Below, piece after piece: positions 567 through 50,424 of a stretch of 51,754 nucleotides of DNA. The notes beneath the pieces are model-generated. The model was not told where the DNA came from. It ran no database searches and worked only from the letters and a program-made list of their open reading frames with translations. The stretch is from a virus. Its lineage: Duplodnaviria > Heunggongvirae > Uroviricota > Caudoviricetes. The first letter of the stretch is position 1, and each line of letters opens with the position of its first letter. The DNA lies in IMG/VR virus record IMGVR_UViG_2861038214_000004; one strand, given 5' to 3'. The translations under genes were made by a program, and so were the position numbers.

Positions 567-581
567 GTTAGTATAAAAAAG
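567..581. repeat. attR: att common core on the attR side: TTAGTATAAAAAAGC, reverse complement of lambda core GCTTTTTTATACTAA
   Basis: Exact 15-bp core; host-type sequence (cttgagcgaaacgg in rc) on the ybhB side and phage P-arm sequence on the other; identical core repeated at 50410..50424. Confidence 0.85.
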
Positions 582-725
582 CTGAACGCGAAACAGCAAA
601 AGCCAATAATATCAATGTGTTAAAATACATTTAGTCTAAAAAATAGACTGCATGATACTACAAAACACAACATATCCAGTCACTATGAATCAACTACTTA
701 GATGGTATTAGTGACCTGTAACAGA
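582..725. other. attP P-arm portion of attR with Int arm-type site motif
   Basis: Sequence resembles the reverse complement of the lambda P arm, including CAGTCACTAT arm-type motif; central part diverged. Confidence 0.55.
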
Positions 726-1138: not shown

Positions 1139-1981
1139 ATGGAACGATTGAGAGAACAATACCAAGAAAGAATAAACAGTGTCCTCCTTGACGGCTTTGA
1201 GAAGGAATTATTGGACTCTGCCTTTATTAATCTTTTGACACCGACCCCACTTAGGTTGAACAATTTTGCATATGCTCTACGTGAACTAACAAGGCATGTT
1301 TTACACCGGTTAGCACCAGATGATGAGCTTCAGCAATGCCAATGGTTTTCGCCTGATCAGACATCATCAACAGGAATTACTCGAAAACATCGCATTAAAT
1401 TTGCGATTCAAGGAGGGCTTTCTGATTTCTATGTAACGAAAAAACTTTGCATTGATGAGATAGATAAGGTGTCAAGCGAATTGATTGCTATCATCAATCG
1501 TCTAAGTGGATTTACACATATAGAAGAAGCAACATTCAAAAGCTCAATCGAAAATACTGAAAGAACCGCAGATGAATGTCTTTCAGCAACTCTTGACTTT
1601 GTTAACAAGATTGATGAACTGAGAGCCGAAGTTGCAGATAAGCTCTTCGATGATATCAATGGAGTTCTGATCGACAGAATAAACAGCGAATCGGTTGTTG
1701 AGTTAATGGAAATATCGCCACATCAGTACATTGATGAAATAACAGCAGAAAACATTTCTGTTGTTAAAATTGGCGTAAGCTCTATGGAGATGCATGTCGA
1801 TGGGAGAATAGGAGCGACCTTAATGTACGGCTCAGCATCCGATCGGCGTAAAGGAGATGGAGCTGAAATTCCGGCCTCGTTTCCCGTATACAGTGAAATG
1901 GAAGTTCTATTTAAACAACCATTGGGCAGTGCCATTAACCTAAATCAGTTTAGCGTAGATATTTCGAGCTGGTATGAGTAA
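1139..1981 (+). CDS. hypothetical protein, 280 aa, no recognised family
   Basis: Long ORF preceded by strong RBS (taggaggttag then ATG); AT-rich; between attR and the remnant-rich b region. Confidence 0.6.
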   Translation: MERLREQYQERINSVLLDGFEKELLDSAFINLLTPTPLRLNNFAYALRELTRHVLHRLAPDDELQQCQWFSPDQTSSTGITRKHRIKFAIQGGLSDFYVTKKLCIDEIDKVSSELIAIINRLSGFTHIEEATFKSSIENTERTADECLSATLDFVNKIDELRAEVADKLFDDINGVLIDRINSESVVELMEISPHQYIDEITAENISVVKIGVSSMEMHVDGRIGATLMYGSASDRRKGDGAEIPASFPVYSEMEVLFKQPLGSAINLNQFSVDISSWYE

Positions 1982-2679: not shown

Positions 2680-2873
2680 TCAATTTATTTATCAATCAGT
2701 TACCCGTAAACCTTATCATGGATTCCAATTATCGACAGCTGGGATTTTTACTTTCTTGATCTGCCCCCGGCGAATGACATATCCCCATTAACCAATGTCC
2801 GCTCCTAGCACTTAGTAGACATTAATAGATTGTAAGCGTTCCCGTCATGTAGCGGTCACCGATTGGTGACGAA

Positions 2874-3233
2874 TTGAAGCGGATCATTGATGAAAGTCGC
2901 AATAACGTGGCCAGCCCATTTATCGTTCACCAGATCCCGGAACGGCAGGTTAAACGCAGCAAAGAAGTTTCTCATCCCACTCAAGTTGCACCAGACTATT
3001 TGAGTCGGTCGTTTTCAGCTACGCGTGACAAGCTGGGTTTATATGACAAACGGCCGATGGATGAAAGGCCAACCTTTCACGAAATTCGCGCCTTAGCAGC
3101 ACATCTTTTTGATCAGCAGGGCATCGATCCACAAGGACGAATGGCACACAGCGATGCGAAATCAACTAAAATCTACACGCAAAACCATATCGACTGGGTT
3201 GTAGTTCCACATGGAGAAATTAAAGCCAGCTAG
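2874..3233 (+). pseudogene. lambda-Int-family integrase C-terminal fragment
   Basis: C-terminal ~60 aa (PTFHEIRALAAHLF...KIYTQ) align by eye with lambda Int C-terminus (PTFHELRSLSARLY...ASQY); no N-terminal or core-binding domains upstream. Confidence 0.6.
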
Positions 3234-3340
3234 CACCAAGTAAGGCATAGAATTTTATTAACCAAGGAGCATATGACCAGTAATTAATTCTTACCGGAAA
3301 GTTAGCCCTGCTAAAATTAATATTAACAAATAAAAAAATA

Positions 3341-3363
3341 GGGGCAAATATTTATATTTGCCC
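3341..3363. terminator. palindromic hairpin flanked by A/T runs; likely bidirectional terminator ending the NTase-2TM operon
   Basis: gggcaaatat..atatttgccc 10-bp stem; T-run follows on minus strand immediately after the 2TM gene stop. Confidence 0.5.
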
Positions 3364-3374
3364 TCGCAACATAT

Positions 3375-3956
3375 TTATCTTCTTTTCAGTTCCTTGGGAA
3401 GAAAAGCATCTATTTCTTCTTCAGAAAATGTTAAATCTTCTTTGTTTTTTAATGCGTCCTGTGCTTTTTTATAAGCTTCAAATGTTGTACTAGGAGAGCC
3501 TGAATACACTGAATGTAAACTCTCGAGTAACGAATCCCGCTCTGACTGCAATTGCTCGATTGGTTTTTCACCCATTGCTAAGTCTGTAAGCAATGATAAA
3601 TACTTTTCTCGGATTAACCAGATCTCATTTGCAGCCTGCTTATGTTTTTGCGCCAACTCACCAAGGTCATAATCTTTGGTATAAGCGTTAAGAATGAGAA
3701 GCAGTGTTGAAACAACAATCCCAACCCCCGTGCCTACTTCACCCGCGCCGAAAAAAGTTGCTAGAAAGCCTCCAGTAGTTAAGGCGGAGAGAATTATTTG
3801 CCAAAACTTTATAGAAGATAGTCGAGATAGGAGAATGTCTGAGCATTTTTCATGCGTCTTATGTGAGTAAACGACCCGACCATAACACTCTCTGATCTGC
3901 CCTTCTAAAACCCTTCTAGATTCAGGTGTATCCTTAGTCTGGAAATGTTGATCCAT
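3375..3956 (-). CDS. two-transmembrane-helix protein, SLATT-like candidate effector
   Basis: Two adjacent hydrophobic helices (FWQIILSALTTGGFLATFF and VGIVVSTLLLILNAY) followed by a charged helical tail; start chosen at internal ATG with GGGAG RBS (ORF track start 4013); overlaps upstream NTase gene by 23 nt. Confidence 0.6.
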   Translation of the reverse strand: MDQHFQTKDTPESRRVLEGQIRECYGRVVYSHKTHEKCSDILLSRLSSIKFWQIILSALTTGGFLATFFGAGEVGTGVGIVVSTLLLILNAYTKDYDLGELAQKHKQAANEIWLIREKYLSLLTDLAMGEKPIEQLQSERDSLLESLHSVYSGSPSTTFEAYKKAQDALKNKEDLTFSEEEIDAFLPKELKRR

Positions 3957-4815
3957 AAATCTCCCGCCATTTTTGCTTAGCCGACCATTCGCGTTTTGGG
4001 GTCGCCATTTCATGCTCTATAGCTTCGAGTGAAATGTTATAGCACCGTTTTGCTTTATATTGGAAAAGCCCTTTACCATAGACATACTGACCACTTCCTG
4101 GCGCTTTCCAATACTCCTTACTCGTATCTTGATCAGCCATCCATTTGAAGAAATCACGACTCATCAAATCGTAGTAAAGATACGACTTATCTCTATGCGC
4201 CCAATTTTCAATGAATTGATACGCAAGCGTATCAATGAGTAAACCACTTATAGGTACATCCCATTTACGCTTCCAAGCTCTTGCCATTCTACAAAGTTGC
4301 ACCAAATTGTTATTGGTAATGTTATTTCTTAACCTCATTGCAGAAATTTCTGGCTTTGGATTTGTAATCCTCCAACGGCCACCACCGTTCGCATCAGGAA
4401 ATGTGTAACTATCACTAACATTGAGGAAAGCTGGAACGACTTCAAATGTAATTCCATCATTGAACGGTACAAGGATCACTTGACCGTCACCTCTAATACT
4501 AGTGGTAGCATAGGTTTTTTCAATAGATCTCTTAACCGCTTGAAGCAATGCTGACTGCCCATTTCCTAAGTAGCTATTGTATTTTTGATACTCGGAATAT
4601 GGTAGCTGAAAAATCATATCCAGATCGCTCAAGCCTTGCGTAGCTGTGTTCCGACCATATGATCCAACGTAGAGACTATGAGAAGTATCAGAACTGCTAT
4701 CCCAAAAATCCGTATTTAAACGCTTCGTTATATTCCTATATCTAGTTGAAATTGTTCCACCATCTTTTACAGTAAGATTGGAGCAAAATCCGCAAAACCA
4801 CTCAGCTAAACCCAT
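3934..4815 (-). CDS. Pol-beta-superfamily nucleotidyltransferase, SMODS/CD-NTase-like
   Basis: Motif VGSYGRNTATQGLSDLDMIF fits the GS...DxD active site of minimal/SMODS nucleotidyltransferases; ATG at 4815 with AAGGAA RBS (track start 4821 is TTG). Confidence 0.7.
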   Translation of the reverse strand: MGLAEWFCGFCSNLTVKDGGTISTRYRNITKRLNTDFWDSSSDTSHSLYVGSYGRNTATQGLSDLDMIFQLPYSEYQKYNSYLGNGQSALLQAVKRSIEKTYATTSIRGDGQVILVPFNDGITFEVVPAFLNVSDSYTFPDANGGGRWRITNPKPEISAMRLRNNITNNNLVQLCRMARAWKRKWDVPISGLLIDTLAYQFIENWAHRDKSYLYYDLMSRDFFKWMADQDTSKEYWKAPGSGQYVYGKGLFQYKAKRCYNISLEAIEHEMATPKREWSAKQKWREIYGSTFPD

Positions 4816-5108
4816 GCTCAATTCCTTTTCTAAAATCTAATGAAAAATTCAAGGGCGCATGTTCCATGCATCATTGATAACTTTTTTCAGTCAGCTGGAG
4901 TAACATAATTGATACTAACTAGCTGTTTCTTCAAGTGAGTAACCTACTTTAGCATCAAGGTATTATACCTACCAAGCATGGGGAGAAACCACCACTTAAG
5001 CCATTGAAGTATATAGAGCAGATTTTGTTGAAAAAGCACTGTTTGTTTATACATATGAATAGTGCTTTTAACCAGCAATAGCGCGGCTCTCAGCGTTTTA
5101 CAAGCAGT

Positions 5109-5156
5109 GTCATGGGGTGTCGGGGATCGGAAGTTCAAATCCTCTCGTGCCGACCA
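5109..5156 (+). tRNA. partial (pseudo) tRNA-Pro: 3' ~48 nt only, resembling proM; not a functional tRNA gene
   Basis: GTCATGGGGTGTCGGGGaTCGGAaGTTCAAATCCTCTCGTGCCGACCA matches the 3' portion of E. coli proM from recall with 2 mismatches; the 5' half of the tRNA is absent. Confidence 0.7.
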
Positions 5157-5169
5157 AAAAGATTATATA

Positions 5170-5196
5170 AACCAGCCTGTTATTGCTGGTTTTTTA
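5170..5196 (+). terminator. intrinsic terminator following the tRNA fragment
   Basis: aaccagc / gctggtt stem with 8-nt loop followed by TTTTTT. Confidence 0.6.
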
Positions 5197-5675
5197 TGCC
5201 TACCTTCCTGGTAGGGAAGCTATGGGGAATTACTGGGGAATCCCCCCCTTTACCTGCTCCCATTAAACTAACATAGCACGATGTAAGCAACTTCCGCTTC
5301 TGGCACATAGCAGGCCTAGAGACAGTGGCGTAAAGTCATGGAGGATAGGTGGGAGGAGGTAAAAATCCTCTCATACAAAAATACGTAAAATCGATAACAG
5401 CTTGAAATCATTCAATACTCGCACTATCGGAAGTTCACCAGCCAACCGCAGCACGTCCTGCATACGTCGTGTCTGCGGTTTTTCTTTTTCGCTTACATTG
5501 TGTCTGGTTCTTCCGGCCACTCAATATCAGGTGCAGTTGATGTATCAACACGGTTCAGCAACACCCGATACTTTTTCCATGCGGCCAGTAACGCTTTCTC
5601 TTCCTCCGTTGCGATTTCCAGCTCAACAACAGTCTGAACGTACCGGGAACAGCCTCCTTCAGAGCTTGAAGGATA

Positions 5676-8600
5676 TCAATGTTCGCTTCCTGTTAACTGC
5701 CGGACAAGTGCAACCAGTTCGCTTACCTGATTTTCCAGAGTGCTGATCCGGGTGCCTGCTGTTGCCAGATTTTGACGTAGCGTTGTGTTTTCCTCTTCCA
5801 GCGCGGTAACGCGATCATCTGTTTCACGGGCGACCTGAACAAGTAAACCCGTCACGGCGGCGTAGTCAACATTAAGATAGCGCGTTTCTTCGCGTAGCTC
5901 GTTGCCGTCAACGGTCGGGCCTTGCAACTCTTCACCGTAATGGATGAATGAACCAACGGCCTCCGGGATGGCCTCTTCAACTTCCTGGGCTATAACCCCG
6001 GCGCAATGTGCCCCATTCTCCTTGAGCGTGTACGTGTATCCATTAATTTTGCGGATTGCGTCAGTCGCGTTATCGATAATCTCGATATTTTCTTTCAGTC
6101 TGCGGTCTGATGACTGATTCAGTGTGGTGCAGTTAACACTTCCGTTTACAGTAAGGTTTTGCCCGTCTGTTGTTTTTTGCGCATAAAACAGATACGCAGC
6201 AGACGTGCCAACCTCAAAAACGTTTTGTCGAGTACTGGAACCCCACACCCTGATACTAACTGGTAGTTCTGAATTACCTGAATTAAGTAAAGCAAAACGA
6301 TTGCCAGTCCCTGTTTGTTTTCTAATTACTAAATCGGCAGTTGAGTTAACCTCATCTTTGTTGATGGTTAGCGCCTGCGCTGTAGCACCGTTAACAGTGC
6401 CACTTAGTAGTTGAACCGCTCCATCATCGCCATTTAACAGCACTTGAGCGCTGCTTCTGTGGTTTTTCAGGAACAACATTTTGCCTGTGCTTTCTGATGT
6501 GCCTACCGACCACGCCGAATTGGTTCCAGTGCTATCAACACCACGAACGGTACAATTCATGCTGCCATAATCTGACGTACTTCCAAGCACATCAATCCGC
6601 CCGCCACCTAATTTTGATGGAGTCGTCGAGGTTAACGACCTGACGGTTACATCCTGATTCCATCCGGAAACAACAACCTGACTCCACGCTGTCCAGTTTC
6701 CATTAACAACAAAGCGAACGTATATACGTTTTGTGTCGCTGTTAATCAGCGTTTGCATGTTCGCATAATCTGAATCCCTAACCTTACGAGTCGATTCAAC
6801 ACGGAGCAAAAAGTTACCTGTTACGCCGTCAGGCTTGTTGGTGATATTTGCACCACCTGCAGAGGATGGACAAATATAGTATTTAACTGCCCCGGCATCT
6901 GACTTGATGATGGTCAGGTTGTTAAGATTAACCGTCTGGCCGTCAATGTTTTCCGGCTCGATGGCTCCTGCTATCCCGGCACTGAACGTAGCAACGGCTG
7001 AAAACGCTGTCGTACCTTTGAAAGCCAGTTGACCACCAATCGTTAATCCCTTGTCGAGTTTCGCTTGCGTGATCAATTTGCTGTTTTGTTTCTGATCAGG
7101 ACTCTCACCAAAAGCCAGATCCCCATTAGTATCAATTCCAAGATACTTTGGGTTCATGTTGTCTAACTTAAACCCAATGGACACATTTTCAGAAGAACCA
7201 GAACGCGTTAAAACCAACGGCGTGTGCTGTACTCCATAGATGCTTAGCGTAGTTGCCGATGAGTCAGTGTCGGTATTTGCAATCTCAATCGTTCTGCTTT
7301 TAATTTTATACGCTACTGTGAGATCACGGACTTCAACCCTCCCGTCGTGACGAACAACAAGATCCCCTCCTGATGTCCCCCCTGCTGTCTTTGCCCTGAT
7401 GCGAACTTCGCCAAGCGAATCAGTGTTAGGACCAGCATAGATTATGCCGCGCTCTGTGTTATCGCCAGTATAAAACCGCAAAGCGGTGACTCCACTGTCT
7501 GCCCGCAGGAAGACTGACGGTGTACCTTTTTTGATTGTCAAGTCACCGGTCATTGTATCGCCGGTTTTTTTTACCTGCGCATCGTTCGTTACGTTGCCAA
7601 GTCCAACATCCGATTTCGACGGCTTGTTTGCCGAGCCGTATAGCTCATTGACGCTAAAAGTCCCGTTGTTAAGCCGGGCATCGTTGCCGGCATAGATCTT
7701 AATCTTCGCGGTTGAGTAGTCGATATTGATCGCTGACCACGTATCGCCGCACCGCGAGAATATACCAGAACCGTGGCTATAAATGGTCGCCGTGCTTCCG
7801 GTCGGCTTATCACCGCGCCAGAAATGACCACCTTTGTCACGCAGAGCTTTTAAGATCTCTACATCGCTCATCTTGCCGTTTGTTGATATCCCGCTACCGC
7901 CAAGACCGAAAGCGCCTGTAAGCATCGCATTTTCAAGGCCCAAATCTGCTTTAGTCGGCTTGTTTAACTGGTCGTAAATCCTTACAACGGGGCTTTCAAC
8001 ATATCCAGAAGGCGCGGCGGTTTGCTTAACAAATCCGTCTGGGATGTATAATTCTGTGCGTGCCGTCTGCGCCAGCACCGCAACCTTTGCGTCGTTAATA
8101 AACGCACCCTGGAATGCCCAAACCTCAATAAAGCCGTCACCTTTAACCAGGCCGTAACGCATCTGGTTGTTATCGGTCAGCCCGGTTGACCCTAAGCGGC
8201 GTATACTCAGATGACGAGAAACATTATCCGCACTAAGCAAAGAAGGCAGACCGCGCGCCGAGATCTCGATAAAGTCAATGTTTCCGTAAGGGGAGCCGTA
8301 GTTACCAGCGTTAGTAACCATTAGCGTTACATGACTTCTGCTGGTTCCAGGATCGGAAAGTTTCGCGATCTTGATGTAAAGAGACTCACTAGCAGTAACA
8401 ACAGGCCAATCGTATTGCGTCATCGGGCTGACGAGTCCCCCGACCTTGTCGAGATATTCTTTCGCCTTGTTCTCTGACGCTTTAGCGTTGGTTTCGCTGA
8501 CCTTTGCTGCTGACTCACTATTTTTCGCGTTGGTTTCTGATTTTTTGGCTGCTGTCGCGGAATTTGCCGATGCAGTTTGTGAGTCTGCTGCCGCCTGTGC

Positions 8601-9452
8601 GCTGTTATCCGCATTCGTCTCAGACGTTTTTGCGGCCTTCGCGGAATTTCCTGCCGCCGTTGCCGAGGAAGCTGCACTGCCGGCGCTCGAGGCTGCGCTC
8701 GTTTCTGATGATTTTGCCGCCACTTTTGAAGCCGACGCATCCCGGGCTGAGGTGGCAGCTTCTGACGCTTTCGTGGTCGCGGTGGATGCAGAAGTGGCCG
8801 CAGATTTTTGTGATGCTGCGGCATTCGTTTCTGACGTTTTCGCTGCACCGGCACTGGTGGCTGCCGCGCTTTTTGAAGACTCTGCAGCGGCAGCACTTTT
8901 TGATGCTTCAGTGGCCTTTGCTGATGCCGTTCCTGCGCTGGAAGACGCTGACTGAGCCGACGAAGCGGCCTGTCCGGCTGACGTGCTGGCTGCACGTGCT
9001 GAGCCTGCAGCATCAGTCGCATGGGTTGCCGCCTCACGGGCTGATGTGCTGGCATCGCTGGCTGACTTCTTCGCGGCTGCTGTGTTCTGCGCCACTGCGG
9101 ACGCGTTACGCGCCACCTCTTCCACCATCAGTTCAAAGCGGCGCAGTGCCTCCGGACGGACATCATCCTCCGTCATGGCACCGAGAAAATCATTCAGCGT
9201 ACCCGGTTGTGAGTCTTCATACACGGTGATGGTCCCGGCATGCGATGGCGGGAAGCCTTCCACCAACAGAATAACGCTGTACTGACCGTACTCAACGTCC
9301 ATGCTGTAACGCCCGGCTTCATCCGGATTTTCTGAGGCCACCGTGTTCGCCACCACCGTGGTGCTGTTACGTTTTGCTTTCAGCTGGATTGTGCAGTTCT
9401 GTACCGGTTTACCTGCGCCGTCTTTCAGTACACCTGAAATCTTTACTGCCAT
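5676..9452 (-). CDS. stf: side tail fibre protein Stf with Ala/Ser-rich shaft and C-terminal intramolecular-chaperone (endosialidase-type) domain
   Basis: N-terminal ~330 aa near-identical to lambda Stf (MAVKISGVLKDG...); C-terminal region contains SDRRLKENI...YTY chaperone-type motif; start set at MAVKISG (track start 9458). Confidence 0.85.
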   Translation of the reverse strand: MAVKISGVLKDGAGKPVQNCTIQLKAKRNSTTVVANTVASENPDEAGRYSMDVEYGQYSVILLVEGFPPSHAGTITVYEDSQPGTLNDFLGAMTEDDVRPEALRRFELMVEEVARNASAVAQNTAAAKKSASDASTSAREAATHATDAAGSARAASTSAGQAASSAQSASSSAGTASAKATEASKSAAAAESSKSAAATSAGAAKTSETNAAASQKSAATSASTATTKASEAATSARDASASKVAAKSSETSAASSAGSAASSATAAGNSAKAAKTSETNADNSAQAAADSQTASANSATAAKKSETNAKNSESAAKVSETNAKASENKAKEYLDKVGGLVSPMTQYDWPVVTASESLYIKIAKLSDPGTSRSHVTLMVTNAGNYGSPYGNIDFIEISARGLPSLLSADNVSRHLSIRRLGSTGLTDNNQMRYGLVKGDGFIEVWAFQGAFINDAKVAVLAQTARTELYIPDGFVKQTAAPSGYVESPVVRIYDQLNKPTKADLGLENAMLTGAFGLGGSGISTNGKMSDVEILKALRDKGGHFWRGDKPTGSTATIYSHGSGIFSRCGDTWSAINIDYSTAKIKIYAGNDARLNNGTFSVNELYGSANKPSKSDVGLGNVTNDAQVKKTGDTMTGDLTIKKGTPSVFLRADSGVTALRFYTGDNTERGIIYAGPNTDSLGEVRIRAKTAGGTSGGDLVVRHDGRVEVRDLTVAYKIKSRTIEIANTDTDSSATTLSIYGVQHTPLVLTRSGSSENVSIGFKLDNMNPKYLGIDTNGDLAFGESPDQKQNSKLITQAKLDKGLTIGGQLAFKGTTAFSAVATFSAGIAGAIEPENIDGQTVNLNNLTIIKSDAGAVKYYICPSSAGGANITNKPDGVTGNFLLRVESTRKVRDSDYANMQTLINSDTKRIYVRFVVNGNWTAWSQVVVSGWNQDVTVRSLTSTTPSKLGGGRIDVLGSTSDYGSMNCTVRGVDSTGTNSAWSVGTSESTGKMLFLKNHRSSAQVLLNGDDGAVQLLSGTVNGATAQALTINKDEVNSTADLVIRKQTGTGNRFALLNSGNSELPVSIRVWGSSTRQNVFEVGTSAAYLFYAQKTTDGQNLTVNGSVNCTTLNQSSDRRLKENIEIIDNATDAIRKINGYTYTLKENGAHCAGVIAQEVEEAIPEAVGSFIHYGEELQGPTVDGNELREETRYLNVDYAAVTGLLVQVARETDDRVTALEEENTTLRQNLATAGTRISTLENQVSELVALVRQLTGSEH

Positions 9453-9461
9453 ATTCACCCC

Positions 9462-32436: not shown

Positions 32437-33765
32437 CTGAGAGATCCCCTCATAATTTCCCCAAAGCGTAACCATGTGTGAATAAATTTTGAGCTAGTAG
32501 GGTTGCAGCCACGAGTAAGTCTTCCCTTGTTATTGTGTAGCCAGAATGCCGCAAAACTTCCATGCCTAAGCGAACTGTTGAGAGTACGTTTCGATTTCTG
32601 ACTGTGTTAGCCTGGAAGTGCTTGTCCCAACCTTGTTTCTGAGCATGAACGCCCGCAAGCCAACATGTTAGTTGAAGCATCAGGGCGATTAGCAGCATGA
32701 TATCAAAACGCTCTGAGCTGCTCGTTCGGCTATGGCGTAGGCCTAGTCCGTAGGCAGGACTTTTCAAGTCTCGGAAGGTTTCTTCAATCTGCATTCGCTT
32801 CGAATAGATATTAACAAGTTGTTTGGGTGTTCGAATTTCAACAGGTAAGTTAGTTGCTAGAATCCATGGCTCCTTTGCCGACGCTGAGTAGATTTTAGGT
32901 GACGGGTGGTGACAATGAGTCCGTGTCGAGCGCTGATTTTTTCGGCCTTTAGAGCGAGATTTATACAATAGAATTTGGCATGAGATTGGATTGCTTTTAG
33001 TCAGCCTCTTATAGCCTAAAGTCTTTGAGTGACTAGATGACATATCATGTAAGTTGCTGATAGGTTTCCAGTTTTCCGCTCCTAGGTCTGCATATTGTAC
33101 TTTTCCTCTTACTCGACTTAACCAGTACCAACCCAGCTTCTCAACGGATTTATACCATGGCACTTTAAAGCCAGCATCACTGACAATGAGCGGTGTGGTG
33201 TTACTCGGTAGAATGCTCGCAAGGTCGGCTAGAAATTGGTCATGAGCTTTCTTTGAACATTGCTCTGAAAGCGGGAACGCTTTCTCATAAAGAGTAACAG
33301 AACGACCGTGTAGTGCGACTGAAGCTCGCAATACCATAAGCCGTTTTTGCTCACGGATATCAGACCAGTCAACAAGTACAATGGGCATCGTATTGCCCGA
33401 ACAGATAAAGCTAGCATGCCAACGGTATACAGCGAGTCGCTCTTTGTGGAGGTGACGATTACCTAACAATCGGTCGATTCGTTTGATGTTATGTTTTGTT
33501 CTCGCTTTGGTTGGCAGGTTACGGCCAAGTTCGGTAAGAGTGAGAGTTTTACAGTCAAGTAATGCGTGGCAAGCCAACGTTAAGCTGTTGAGTCGTTTTA
33601 AGTGTAATTCGGGGCAGAATTGGTAAAGAGAGTCGTGTAAAATATCGAGTTCGCACATCTTGTTGTCTGATTATTGATTTTTCGCGAAACCATTTGATCA
33701 TATGACAAGATGTGTATCCACCTTAACTTAATGATTTTTACCAAAATCATTAGGGGATTCATCAG
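32437..33765 (-). mobile_element. IS10: IS10 insertion sequence, 1329 bp, with 9-bp target duplication TGCTAAGCA (32428..32436 and 33766..33774)
   Basis: Ends CTGAGAGATCCCC (inside end) and rc of CTGATGAATCCCC (outside end) recognised; transposase ORF inside; TSD matches the IS10 hotspot NGCTNAGCN. Confidence 0.9.
32450..33658 (-). CDS. IS10 transposase
   Basis: 402-aa ORF beginning MCELDILHDSLYQ, recalled as Tn10/IS10 transposase. Confidence 0.9.
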   Translation of the reverse strand: MCELDILHDSLYQFCPELHLKRLNSLTLACHALLDCKTLTLTELGRNLPTKARTKHNIKRIDRLLGNRHLHKERLAVYRWHASFICSGNTMPIVLVDWSDIREQKRLMVLRASVALHGRSVTLYEKAFPLSEQCSKKAHDQFLADLASILPSNTTPLIVSDAGFKVPWYKSVEKLGWYWLSRVRGKVQYADLGAENWKPISNLHDMSSSHSKTLGYKRLTKSNPISCQILLYKSRSKGRKNQRSTRTHCHHPSPKIYSASAKEPWILATNLPVEIRTPKQLVNIYSKRMQIEETFRDLKSPAYGLGLRHSRTSSSERFDIMLLIALMLQLTCWLAGVHAQKQGWDKHFQANTVRNRNVLSTVRLGMEVLRHSGYTITREDLLVAATLLAQNLFTHGYALGKL

Positions 33766-49069: not shown

Positions 49070-49288
49070 ATGTACTTGACACTTCAGGAGTGGAACGCAC
49101 GCCAACGACGCCCAAGAAGCCTTGAAACAGTTCGTCGATGGGTACGCGAGTGCAGGATATTCCCTCCTCCGGTTAAGGATGGAAGAGAGTATCTGTTCCA
49201 CGAATCAGCGGTAAAGGTTGACTTAAATCGACCAGTAACAGGTAGCCTTTTGAAGAGGATCAGAAATGGGAAGAAGGCGAAGTCATGA
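49070..49288 (+). CDS. xis: excisionase Xis
   Basis: 72 aa, matches lambda Xis. Confidence 0.95.
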   Translation: MYLTLQEWNARQRRPRSLETVRRWVRECRIFPPPVKDGREYLFHESAVKVDLNRPVTGSLLKRIRNGKKAKS

Positions 49289-50336
49289 GCGCCGGGATTT
49301 ACCCCCTAACCTTTATATAAGAAACAATGGATATTACTGCTACAGGGACCCAAGGACGGGTAAAGAGTTTGGATTAGGCCGAGACAGGCGAATCGCAATC
49401 ACTGAAGCTATACAGGCCAACATTGAGTTATTTTCAGGACACAAACACAAGCCTCTGACAGCGAGAATCAACAGTGATAATTCCGTTACGTTACATTCAT
49501 GGCTTGATCGCTACGAAAAAATCCTGGCCAGCAGAGGAATCAAGCAGAAGACACTCATAAATTACATGAGCAAAATTAAAGCAATAAGGAGGGGTCTGCC
49601 TGATGCTCCACTTGAAGACATCACCACAAAAGAAATTGCGGCAATGCTCAATGGATACATAGACGAGGGCAAGGCGGCGTCAGCCAAGTTAATCAGATCA
49701 ACACTGAGCGATGCATTCCGAGAGGCAATAGCTGAAGGCCATATAACAACAAACCCTGTCGCTGCCACTCGCGCAGCAAAATCAGAGGTAAGGAGATCAA
49801 GACTTACGGCTGACGAATACCTGAAAATTTATCAAGCAGCAGAATCATCACCATGTTGGCTCAGACTTGCAATGGAACTGGCTGTTGTTACCGGGCAGCG
49901 AGTTGGTGATTTATGCGAAATGAAGTGGTCTGATATCGTAGATGGATATCTTTATGTCGAGCAAAGCAAAACAGGCGTAAAAATTGCCATCCCAACAACA
50001 TTGCATGTTGATGCTCTCGGGATATCAATGAAGGAAACACTTGATAAATGCAAAAAGATTCTTGGCGGAGAAACCATAATTGCATCTACTCGTCGTGAAC
50101 CGCTTTCATCCGGCACAGTATCAAGGTATTTTATGCGCGCACGAAAAGCATCAGGTCTTTCCTTCGAAGGGGATCCGCCTACCTTTCACGAGTTGCGCAG
50201 TTTGTCTGCAAGACTCTATGAGAAGCAGATAAGCGATAAGTTTGCTCAACATCTTCTCGGGCATAAGTCGGACACCATGGCATCACAGTATCGTGATGAC
50301 AGAGGCAGGGAGTGGGACAAAATTGAAATCAAATAA
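49266..50336 (+). CDS. int: integrase Int (tyrosine recombinase)
   Basis: 356 aa, matches lambda Int; 3' end 73 bp from the att core. Confidence 0.95.
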   Translation: MGRRRSHERRDLPPNLYIRNNGYYCYRDPRTGKEFGLGRDRRIAITEAIQANIELFSGHKHKPLTARINSDNSVTLHSWLDRYEKILASRGIKQKTLINYMSKIKAIRRGLPDAPLEDITTKEIAAMLNGYIDEGKAASAKLIRSTLSDAFREAIAEGHITTNPVAATRAAKSEVRRSRLTADEYLKIYQAAESSPCWLRLAMELAVVTGQRVGDLCEMKWSDIVDGYLYVEQSKTGVKIAIPTTLHVDALGISMKETLDKCKKILGGETIIASTRREPLSSGTVSRYFMRARKASGLSFEGDPPTFHELRSLSARLYEKQISDKFAQHLLGHKSDTMASQYRDDRGREWDKIEIK

Positions 50337-50409: not shown

Positions 50410-50424
50410 TTAGTATAAAAAAGC
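50410..50424. repeat. attL: att common core on the attL side (TTAGTATAAAAAAGC)
   Basis: Exact 15-bp core identical to 567..581, with P'-arm on the int side and host sequence on the ybhC side. Confidence 0.85.

Follow-up and report, generated by a model that had tools for sequence, protein, structure and literature searches.

Membrane proteins, SLATT4 and SLATT6 among them, are the most abundant effector class in cyclic-oligonucleotide-based anti-phage signalling systems (CBASS) (PMC12480259), and type I operons whose effectors have two or four transmembrane segments (2TM or 4TM) fall mostly into clades D, E and F of the CD-NTases, nucleotidyltransferases resembling cGAS and DncV (bioRxiv 10.1101/2023.05.21.541620). 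The EcCdnF04-SLATT6 and EcCdnF05-SLATT6 operons confer broad defence of at least 10,000-fold in E. coli (Richmond-Buccola et al., bioRxiv 10.1101/2023.05.21.541620), and a type I CBASS on the lactococcal plasmid pUCCL631 has confirmed antiphage activity with an abortive-infection-like phenotype (PMC11381338). SLATT effectors are thought to oligomerise on signal binding into membrane-breaching assemblies (bioRxiv 10.64898/2025.12.03.692087), and mutants that escape type I CBASS carry changes in genes for late virion-assembly proteins, namely prohead protease, capsid and tail fibre (bioRxiv 10.1101/2023.05.21.541620). Here we analyse a 51,754-nucleotide stretch of viral DNA, IMG/VR record IMGVR_UViG_2861038214_000004 (the window), in which two overlapping minus-strand genes are predicted to encode a SMODS-family cyclase and a SLATT_4 protein. 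Very probably, in our view, a lambda-like E. coli prophage carries in this pair, as cargo of its b region, a minimal (type I) CBASS operon that is intact and directed against phages. A preliminary description had proposed just such a CBASS-like SMODS-SLATT module as prophage cargo in the b region. That proposal is upheld by profile matches covering both proteins at full length, by a neighbourhood free of accessory genes, and by the position of the pair between a tail-fibre gene and one of two lambda attachment cores.

The first gene (3934..4815, minus strand; ATG at 4815, TAA at 3936-3934; RefSeq WP_039023230.1) encodes 293 amino acids (aa). From end to end, its product matches Pfam SMODS PF18144 (E 2e-50), scoring 171.6 bits where the cut-off is 26.5, and residues 1-292 align with the 293-position PADLOC oligonucleotide cyclase model PDLC00786 (E 7e-144), with 22 further PADLOC cyclase models matching as well. 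Residues 50-69 read VGSYGRNTATQGLSDLDMIF and contain the GS...DxD motif, which the preliminary description had picked out and which we find again. The Pol-beta-type catalytic set (GS...DxD...E) is complete, and when 31 cyclase homologues are aligned, none of its members (G51, S52, D64, D66 and E125) varies. The closest solved structure by sequence is P. aeruginosa CdnD (6P82/6P8U; E 6e-9); GS, DxD and the third acidic residue align in register, E125 being replaced by Asp in CdnD. The AGS-C domain is absent. Structural models of both proteins were made with AlphaFold2 (AF2) from close homologues (78-100% identical) and are therefore weak, and the cyclase model nevertheless retrieves the expected fold family: its best 24 Foldseek matches in the PDB are bacterial CD-NTases, followed by MAB21L1, cGAS and OAS1. 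The ranking among CD-NTases (CdnD > CdnC > CdnE > CdnG > DncV > CdnB) should not be read as a clade assignment. The product of this gene is thus predicted to be a cGAS/DncV-like, SMODS-family nucleotidyltransferase with an intact active site.

Could the enzyme instead be an AbiEii/DUF1814-type or MNT-type nucleotidyltransferase of a toxin-antitoxin pair, a choice that could not be made by eye in the preliminary description? The Pol-beta GS...DxD motif is shared with such enzymes, and the protein has a weak match to the generic NTP_transf_2 family (E 0.007). This match, however, lies under the Pfam gathering score, whereas the SMODS match is far stronger; the partner is a SLATT_4 protein and neither AbiEi nor HEPN; and the fold matches are CD-NTases. 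A Pfam search of the cyclase returned no AbiEii/DUF1814 match at E<=1. The profiles decide for SMODS, the AbiEii/MNT identity is refuted at the level of sequence families, and we give it next to no probability.

The second gene (3375..3956, minus strand; ATG at 3956; RefSeq WP_000371964.1) encodes a 193-aa putative 2TM effector. It matches Pfam SLATT_4 PF18186 from position 1 to 165 of 165 (E 4e-74; 248.1 bits against 27), NCBIfam SLATT_4 NF033632 (150.7 bits against a cut-off of 55) and, end to end, the PADLOC CBASS 2TM effector model (E 1e-84). An alternative ATG at 4013 would give 212 aa; in a 25-sequence alignment, 24 homologues start at or adjoining the Met at 3956. Two hydrophobic stretches, residues 51-72 and 74-93, are free of charge, are separated by one Glu, and have mean Kyte-Doolittle hydropathies of 1.3 and 1.7. 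They are called as transmembrane from this profile together with the all-helical AF2 model, in which both are helices. The hairpin is flanked by an N-terminal helix and by a C-terminal half forming an acidic and basic helical tail; both flanking parts are assumed to be cytosolic. Invariant stretches across the homologues include GRVVYxHKTHEKC and NAYTKxYDLGELAQKHKQ. These features identify the product as a SLATT_4 protein (SMODS and SLOG-associating 2TM effector family 4) with a predicted two-helix membrane hairpin; association with SMODS is what defines this family.

The cyclase stop and the effector start overlap by 23 nt (3934..3956, minus strand), as read directly from the sequence, and the same overlap is present in five copies of the cassette found elsewhere (L003-L007). 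The effector has a Shine-Dalgarno sequence, GGAG, at 3964..3961, 4 nt upstream of its ATG. With this arrangement, the two genes are predicted to be translationally coupled. The cyclase has its own Shine-Dalgarno sequence, AAGGA (4823..4827, minus strand), 7 nt upstream of its ATG and at the 5' edge of the conserved cassette, where AGAAAAGGAA is kept in the enterobacterial and Aeromonas copies while the DNA further upstream diverges. On the other side, 12 nt past the effector stop, lies an intrinsic terminator-like hairpin, GGGCAAATAT/ATATTTGCCC with a T tract (3332..3363, minus strand). Its stem, 3363..3342, has 9 bp and is followed by CTATTTTTTT; a terminator scan found no other such site in 3200-5700. 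With the overlap, this single terminator marks the two genes as a predicted co-transcribed unit. The overlap, the two adjacent hydrophobic helices with their charged tail, and the terminator had all been noted in the preliminary description, and all were recovered. Together with the active-site motif, they are judged not to be chance, given the full-length Pfam matches at E 2e-50 and E 4e-74.

By its attachment cores and gene order, the carrier is identified as a lambda-like prophage of 49.8 kb, integrated at att-lambda of E. coli. The window holds two exact matches to the lambda att core GCTTTTTTATACTAA, where 0 are expected: attR (568..582, minus strand) and its partner attL (50410-50424). 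The window begins with ybhB, outside attR, and a 427-aa open reading frame (ORF) that we take to be ybhC lies beyond attL. Two ORFs of the sizes of Xis and Int (72 and 356 aa) adjoin the second core at 49070-50336. A complete gene order of the lambda type fills the space between the cores, running from tail fibre, lom, J, tail genes, head genes, terminase and lysis genes to Q, ninB-ninX, P, O, cII, cro, cI and exo-bet-gam. In this order, the pair occupies the b region, with the tail-fibre gene (5676-9458) on one side and attR on the other. Its GC content is 0.40, close to that of the whole b region (0.41), the rest of the prophage standing at 0.51. E. coli WI2 (NZ_LT838200.1) matches the opening 6 kb of the window with 100% identity. 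Around the pair stand tail-fibre genes, the remains of an integrase and of a tRNA-Pro gene, and a 65-aa ORF. Among these neighbours, there is no Cap2/Cap3, HORMA/TRIP13, Cap9/Cap10/OGG or other accessory gene of CBASS, and the system is therefore placed in type I.

How widespread is the cassette? The 1.6-kb region occurs at >=99% identity in 47 of 5426 complete E. coli genomes, always on the chromosome, and near-identical copies lie on 8 IMG/VR viral contigs. Database searches returned 6845 relatives of the cyclase at E<=1e-5, and a separate search among representatives at 50% identity gave 1548 related clusters. The best 120 of the 6845 are 78-100% identical, nearly all 293 aa long with few partial, and include Citrobacter, Klebsiella, Enterobacter, Proteus and Aeromonas, as well as metagenome-assembled genomes of Brocadiaceae and Ignavibacteria. 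The SLATT protein has 4304 relatives, mostly of 193 aa and 76-100% identical. Homologous pairs are also found on plasmids of many phyla. The genomic settings differ: in the enterobacterial prophages L003-L006, the cassette has the prophage end on one side and, on the other, an integrase of 392 aa that is convergent with it; in the Brocadiaceae contig L007, it lies amid PIN, methyltransferase and ResIII genes of a defence island; and in Aeromonas caviae (L008), it follows a SMODS+AGS_C / SLATT_6 pair in an integrase-bearing island. Only the pair, and no further gene, is common to these contexts (L003-L008).

In the Aeromonas locus, at L008 2884-6033, two SLATT-type type I CBASS cassettes stand in tandem, the first consisting of a 439-aa SMODS+AGS_C protein and SLATT_6, the second of a 293-aa SMODS protein and a SLATT_4 gene that was called at 76 aa and is apparently truncated.

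Across contexts, the proteins are 81-92% identical and the DNA 71-82% identical. Against L003 and L008, the ratio of nonsynonymous to synonymous substitution (dN/dS) is 0.06-0.07 for the cyclase and 0.02-0.03 for the SLATT protein, with dS>1. Therefore, the conservation reflects constraint and not only recent transfer: the cassette travels across phyla under strong purifying selection. This bears on the possibility that it is a silent or decaying passenger, a relic in a mosaic b region that is unexpressed in the lysogen and has no role in defence. Its flanks do hold gene debris (an integrase that is truncated, part of a tRNA and what is left of a tail-fibre-assembly gene), a scan for consensus promoters was negative, and the pair is rare among complete E. 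coli genomes. Both ORFs, however, are intact and identical to sequences on hundreds to >1000 contigs, the catalytic residues, ribosome-binding sites and terminator are all present, and selection has been strong in every context compared. We regard such a relic as very unlikely.

In the type I CBASS that we favour, infection by another phage would switch on the cyclase, which would then make a cyclic oligonucleotide. The signal would bind the highly conserved, presumably cytosolic helices of SLATT_4, and the signal-bound protein would oligomerise and breach the inner membrane. The cell would die or stop growing before the invading phage finishes its cycle, and such abortive infection would protect sister lysogens, to the benefit of the prophage.

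Several points weigh against this interpretation. What we say of the nucleotide product, of the trigger, of death through a disrupted membrane and of lysogen expression is inference, and the step from signal to pore is an assumption: profile and structure searches found no recognised nucleotide-binding domain in SLATT_4, and neither sequence search nor fold search found a solved relative (best E 0.23, to generic helical bundles). The AF2 models are mediocre, with a mean predicted local distance difference test score (pLDDT) of 64 for the cyclase and 71 for the effector, and the TM-scores of the cyclase model against solved CD-NTases, 0.35-0.4, support the fold family alone. The NCBIfam CBASS cyclase equivalogs NF041117 and NF041116 score 117.3 and 28.7 bits, below the cut-off of 200; these evidently cover other cyclase subfamilies and do not conflict with the SMODS and PADLOC matches. 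The clade assignment discussed below is indirect. The pair sits in a mosaic region with pseudogenes. Among isolated phages (INPHARED), there was no DNA match, and the protein search gave two partial Listeria phage hits. Finally, a sigma-70 consensus scan of the coding strand upstream of the cyclase found no promoter, which weakens the case for expression in the lysogen.

Expression is the weakest link of the CBASS interpretation. A candidate -10 box, TATAAT (4962..4967, minus strand), lies 147 nt upstream of the cyclase ATG and has no good -35. When upstream regions from five contexts were aligned, conservation was limited to about 40 nt before the cyclase ATG, which suggests that each context supplies its own promoter. 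In the window, the pair is co-oriented with the late operon and downstream of the tail-fibre genes, with no terminator predicted between; therefore, read-through into the pair during the prophage's own lytic growth is likely. Does the module then serve the prophage's own cycle, for instance by late membrane permeabilisation or by superinfection exclusion during lytic growth? Its place directly after the late tail-fibre genes would fit, since Q-antiterminated late transcripts should read into the cassette. Yet the same cassette is found outside prophages, in defence islands and on plasmids, other prophages carry it beside an integrase rather than late genes, and this prophage already has its own holin, endolysin and spanin genes. 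We consider a role of this sort extremely unlikely.

To which clade does the cyclase belong? Type I members of clades A, C, D and E reportedly lack AGS-C, whereas nearly all of B and H and some branches of F and G have it (bioRxiv 10.1101/2023.05.21.541620). The nearest relatives outside the family, with 39-49% identity to the cyclase and lengths of 420-456 aa, carry AGS_C; among them, the AGS_C-bearing, SLATT_6-partnered Aeromonas cyclase is 39% identical. These relatives make clade F or G the probable placement of the family. Clade F is also that of the E. coli precedents linked to SLATT (bioRxiv 10.1101/2023.05.21.541620).

How closely do the two proteins cooperate? Four relatives of the cyclase at about 40% identity (P0275, P0283, P0286 and P0287; about 490-508 aa) have an N-terminal SMODS domain, and the one that was checked, P0275, has SLATT_4 at its C-terminus, making it a single-chain SMODS-SLATT_4 fusion. 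By the Rosetta-stone argument, such fusions indicate that the two proteins work together. They also raise an alternative to signalling by a free messenger, in which the cyclase would be seated on membrane-bound SLATT_4 and control its opening without an intermediary, either in cis or through nucleotidylylation. Besides the natural fusions of about 490 aa, translational coupling suggests stoichiometric production, constraint on the two proteins is unusual (dN/dS 0.02-0.07, with aa identity near 80% where nt identity is 71%), and SLATT_4 has no ligand-binding domain recognisable by profile or structure searches. The fusions, however, fit in-cis signalling by a normal messenger equally well and, to our knowledge, all characterised CD-NTases make diffusible cyclic oligonucleotides. 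SLATT also pairs with generators of the TIR/cyclic ADP-ribose (cADPR) kind, which argues for small-molecule sensing (bioRxiv 10.64898/2025.12.03.692087), while on the side of direct gating, clade F enzymes have no reported product in vitro (bioRxiv 10.1101/2023.05.21.541620). Gating within a complex is improbable in our judgement, and it is the most interesting of the surviving alternatives; the fusions and the extreme constraint are suggestive of it. A wider formulation, in which SMODS (293 aa)-SLATT_4 (193 aa) would be a distinct, ultra-conserved CBASS lineage, probably of clade F, working as one membrane-bound machine that is gated in cis or directly modified, is offered tentatively and is itself rather unlikely.

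Where did the prophage acquire the cassette? Downstream of the effector gene and convergent with it lies a tyrosine integrase 3' fragment, a pseudogene (2834..3233, plus strand), which carries the PGAP note 'recombinase, frameshifted, missing N-terminus', matches the C-terminal end of Pfam Phage_integrase, and has its homologue in the 3' end of a 392-aa integrase that stands intact beside the cassette in L003. On the other side is the 3' part of a tRNA-Pro gene (5109..5160, plus strand), an att-core relic followed by the tRNA's terminator hairpin to about 5195. By BLAST, this 52-nt fragment shows 96% identity with tRNA-Pro genes annotated across thousands of E. coli genomes; it is absent from the Rfam output and from that of ARAGORN, which finds no whole tRNA here. 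L003 and L004 show this order too, with tRNA fragment, cassette and a full-length homologous integrase closing a different prophage. The 'att(tRNA-Pro) - CBASS - int' end of a second temperate phage thus seems to have been taken up by a lambda-type b region, and the remnant of tRNA, cassette and integrase looks like a fossil of integration-module exchange.

Other genes of the window deserve mention. A 280-aa ORF in the b region near attR (1139-1981, plus strand) matches Pfam pP_pnuc_1 (E 2e-39) and pP_pnuc_2 (E 2e-25), phrog_29508 and, over its whole length, the PADLOC model 'Aga_Nuclease' (E 1e-72). Homologous to the predicted Argonaute/pPIWI-associated nuclease, it stands alone, without an Argonaute gene in its vicinity, and may be an independent defence or accessory gene. 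This ORF and the 65-aa ORF were considered as a third CBASS gene and rejected, as neither accompanies the cassette elsewhere. At the rexAB position, after the cI-like repressor, two genes (41034-41576 and 41564-42340, plus strand) weakly match, in order, both components of PDC-M24, a candidate defence system in PADLOC (component A, E 4e-4; component B, E 5e-7; Pfam DUF6978 and DUF1828), which makes them a possible second module of defence within the immunity region.

The remaining observations concern the structure of the prophage and its borders. An ISVsa5 transposase (IS4-family, IS10-like) at about 32450-33658 (35047-36255 in L002) interrupts an nmpC/phoE-like porin gene between the lysis genes and Q. 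The tail-fibre gene at 5676-9458 (minus strand) is a single uninterrupted ORF of 1260 aa in the window; in WI2, RefSeq divides the same DNA into a pseudogene fragment and a 'pyocin knob domain-containing S74 family peptidase'. Overlapping its end and a tail-fibre-assembly remnant is a match to the Rfam small RNA family IS009 (5536-5700, minus strand; 78.8 bits, under the gathering score of 117), cut at the search boundary. An extra island separates ybhB from the b region in E. coli AR435 (L001, 796-6201), to the left of window position 841. It is present in many cassette-bearing E. coli genomes and missing from the window's strain, and it encodes a tyrosine integrase, an HsdM-family methyltransferase, an ORC/CDC6-family AAA ATPase and a hypothetical protein.

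Why does this locus matter? SLATT_4 type I CBASS is already catalogued: in WI2, RefSeq names the two proteins 'SMODS domain-containing nucleotidyltransferase' and 'SLATT domain-containing protein', and the PADLOC models match end to end. Standard tools (PGAP, PADLOC) thus recognise the pair already, and it is nothing new in kind. The cassette is, however, a compact and highly conserved representative of the SLATT_4 effector class. In the literature searched, we found no paper determining the nucleotide signal, the phage trigger or the effector (pore) mechanism of a SLATT_4 system, and the cassette would therefore be a convenient model. The prophage would arm its host with CBASS in about 1% of complete E. 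coli genomes, mostly human isolates among those listed, which is relevant to host range in phage therapy and to the movement of defence cassettes between phages.

How does the operon compare with described systems? The enzyme shares the CD-NTase fold and active-site motif with CdnD of P. aeruginosa ATCC27853 (6P82/6P8J/6P8U) in a full-length alignment, but identity is low (22-23%), and the system of CdnD is a type III CBASS in which HORMA/TRIP13 regulate and the effector is a nuclease. In Cap15, a cyclic-nucleotide signal activates a membrane-damaging protein, as proposed here, and the ligand-binding domain is a beta-barrel, unlike the all-helical SLATT_4. Cap14 (PMC10402079) likewise passes a cyclic-nucleotide signal to a membrane protein that destroys membrane integrity or ion balance, and it does so with a SAVED ligand-binding domain, whereas the all-helical SLATT_4 has no recognised sensor. 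The ThsH (SLATT) protein of type VII Thoeris belongs to the same superfamily by annotation and is proposed to undergo signal-induced transmembrane oligomerisation; its signal, however, is cADPR from a TIR protein and not the product of a CD-NTase (bioRxiv 10.64898/2025.12.03.692087).

The nearest likenesses are found among type I operons and prophage cargo. The pUCCL631 system also has two genes and an effector of 190 aa annotated as PF18186 (SLATT_4), a likeness by annotation; it differs in its 408-aa cyclase with a C-terminal AGS-C sensor domain, its plasmid location and its Gram-positive host (PMC11381338). EcCdnF04-SLATT6 and EcCdnF05-SLATT6 share with the present locus the two-gene operon, a CD-NTase with a small two-TM SLATT effector, the lack of Cap genes and the E. 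coli host. Their effectors are SLATT_6, whereas ours is SLATT_4 (PF18186); the cyclase here has 293 aa without AGS-C, and we infer that it shares membership of clade F with EcCdnF04. As prophage cargo, the cassette resembles lambda rexAB and sieB and the P2/P4 hotspots (PMC9122126) in its accessory region, its place at the prophage end and its low GC content. It differs from this known cargo in content, bringing with it the integration relics of another phage, the tRNA-Pro core and the 3' end of an integrase.

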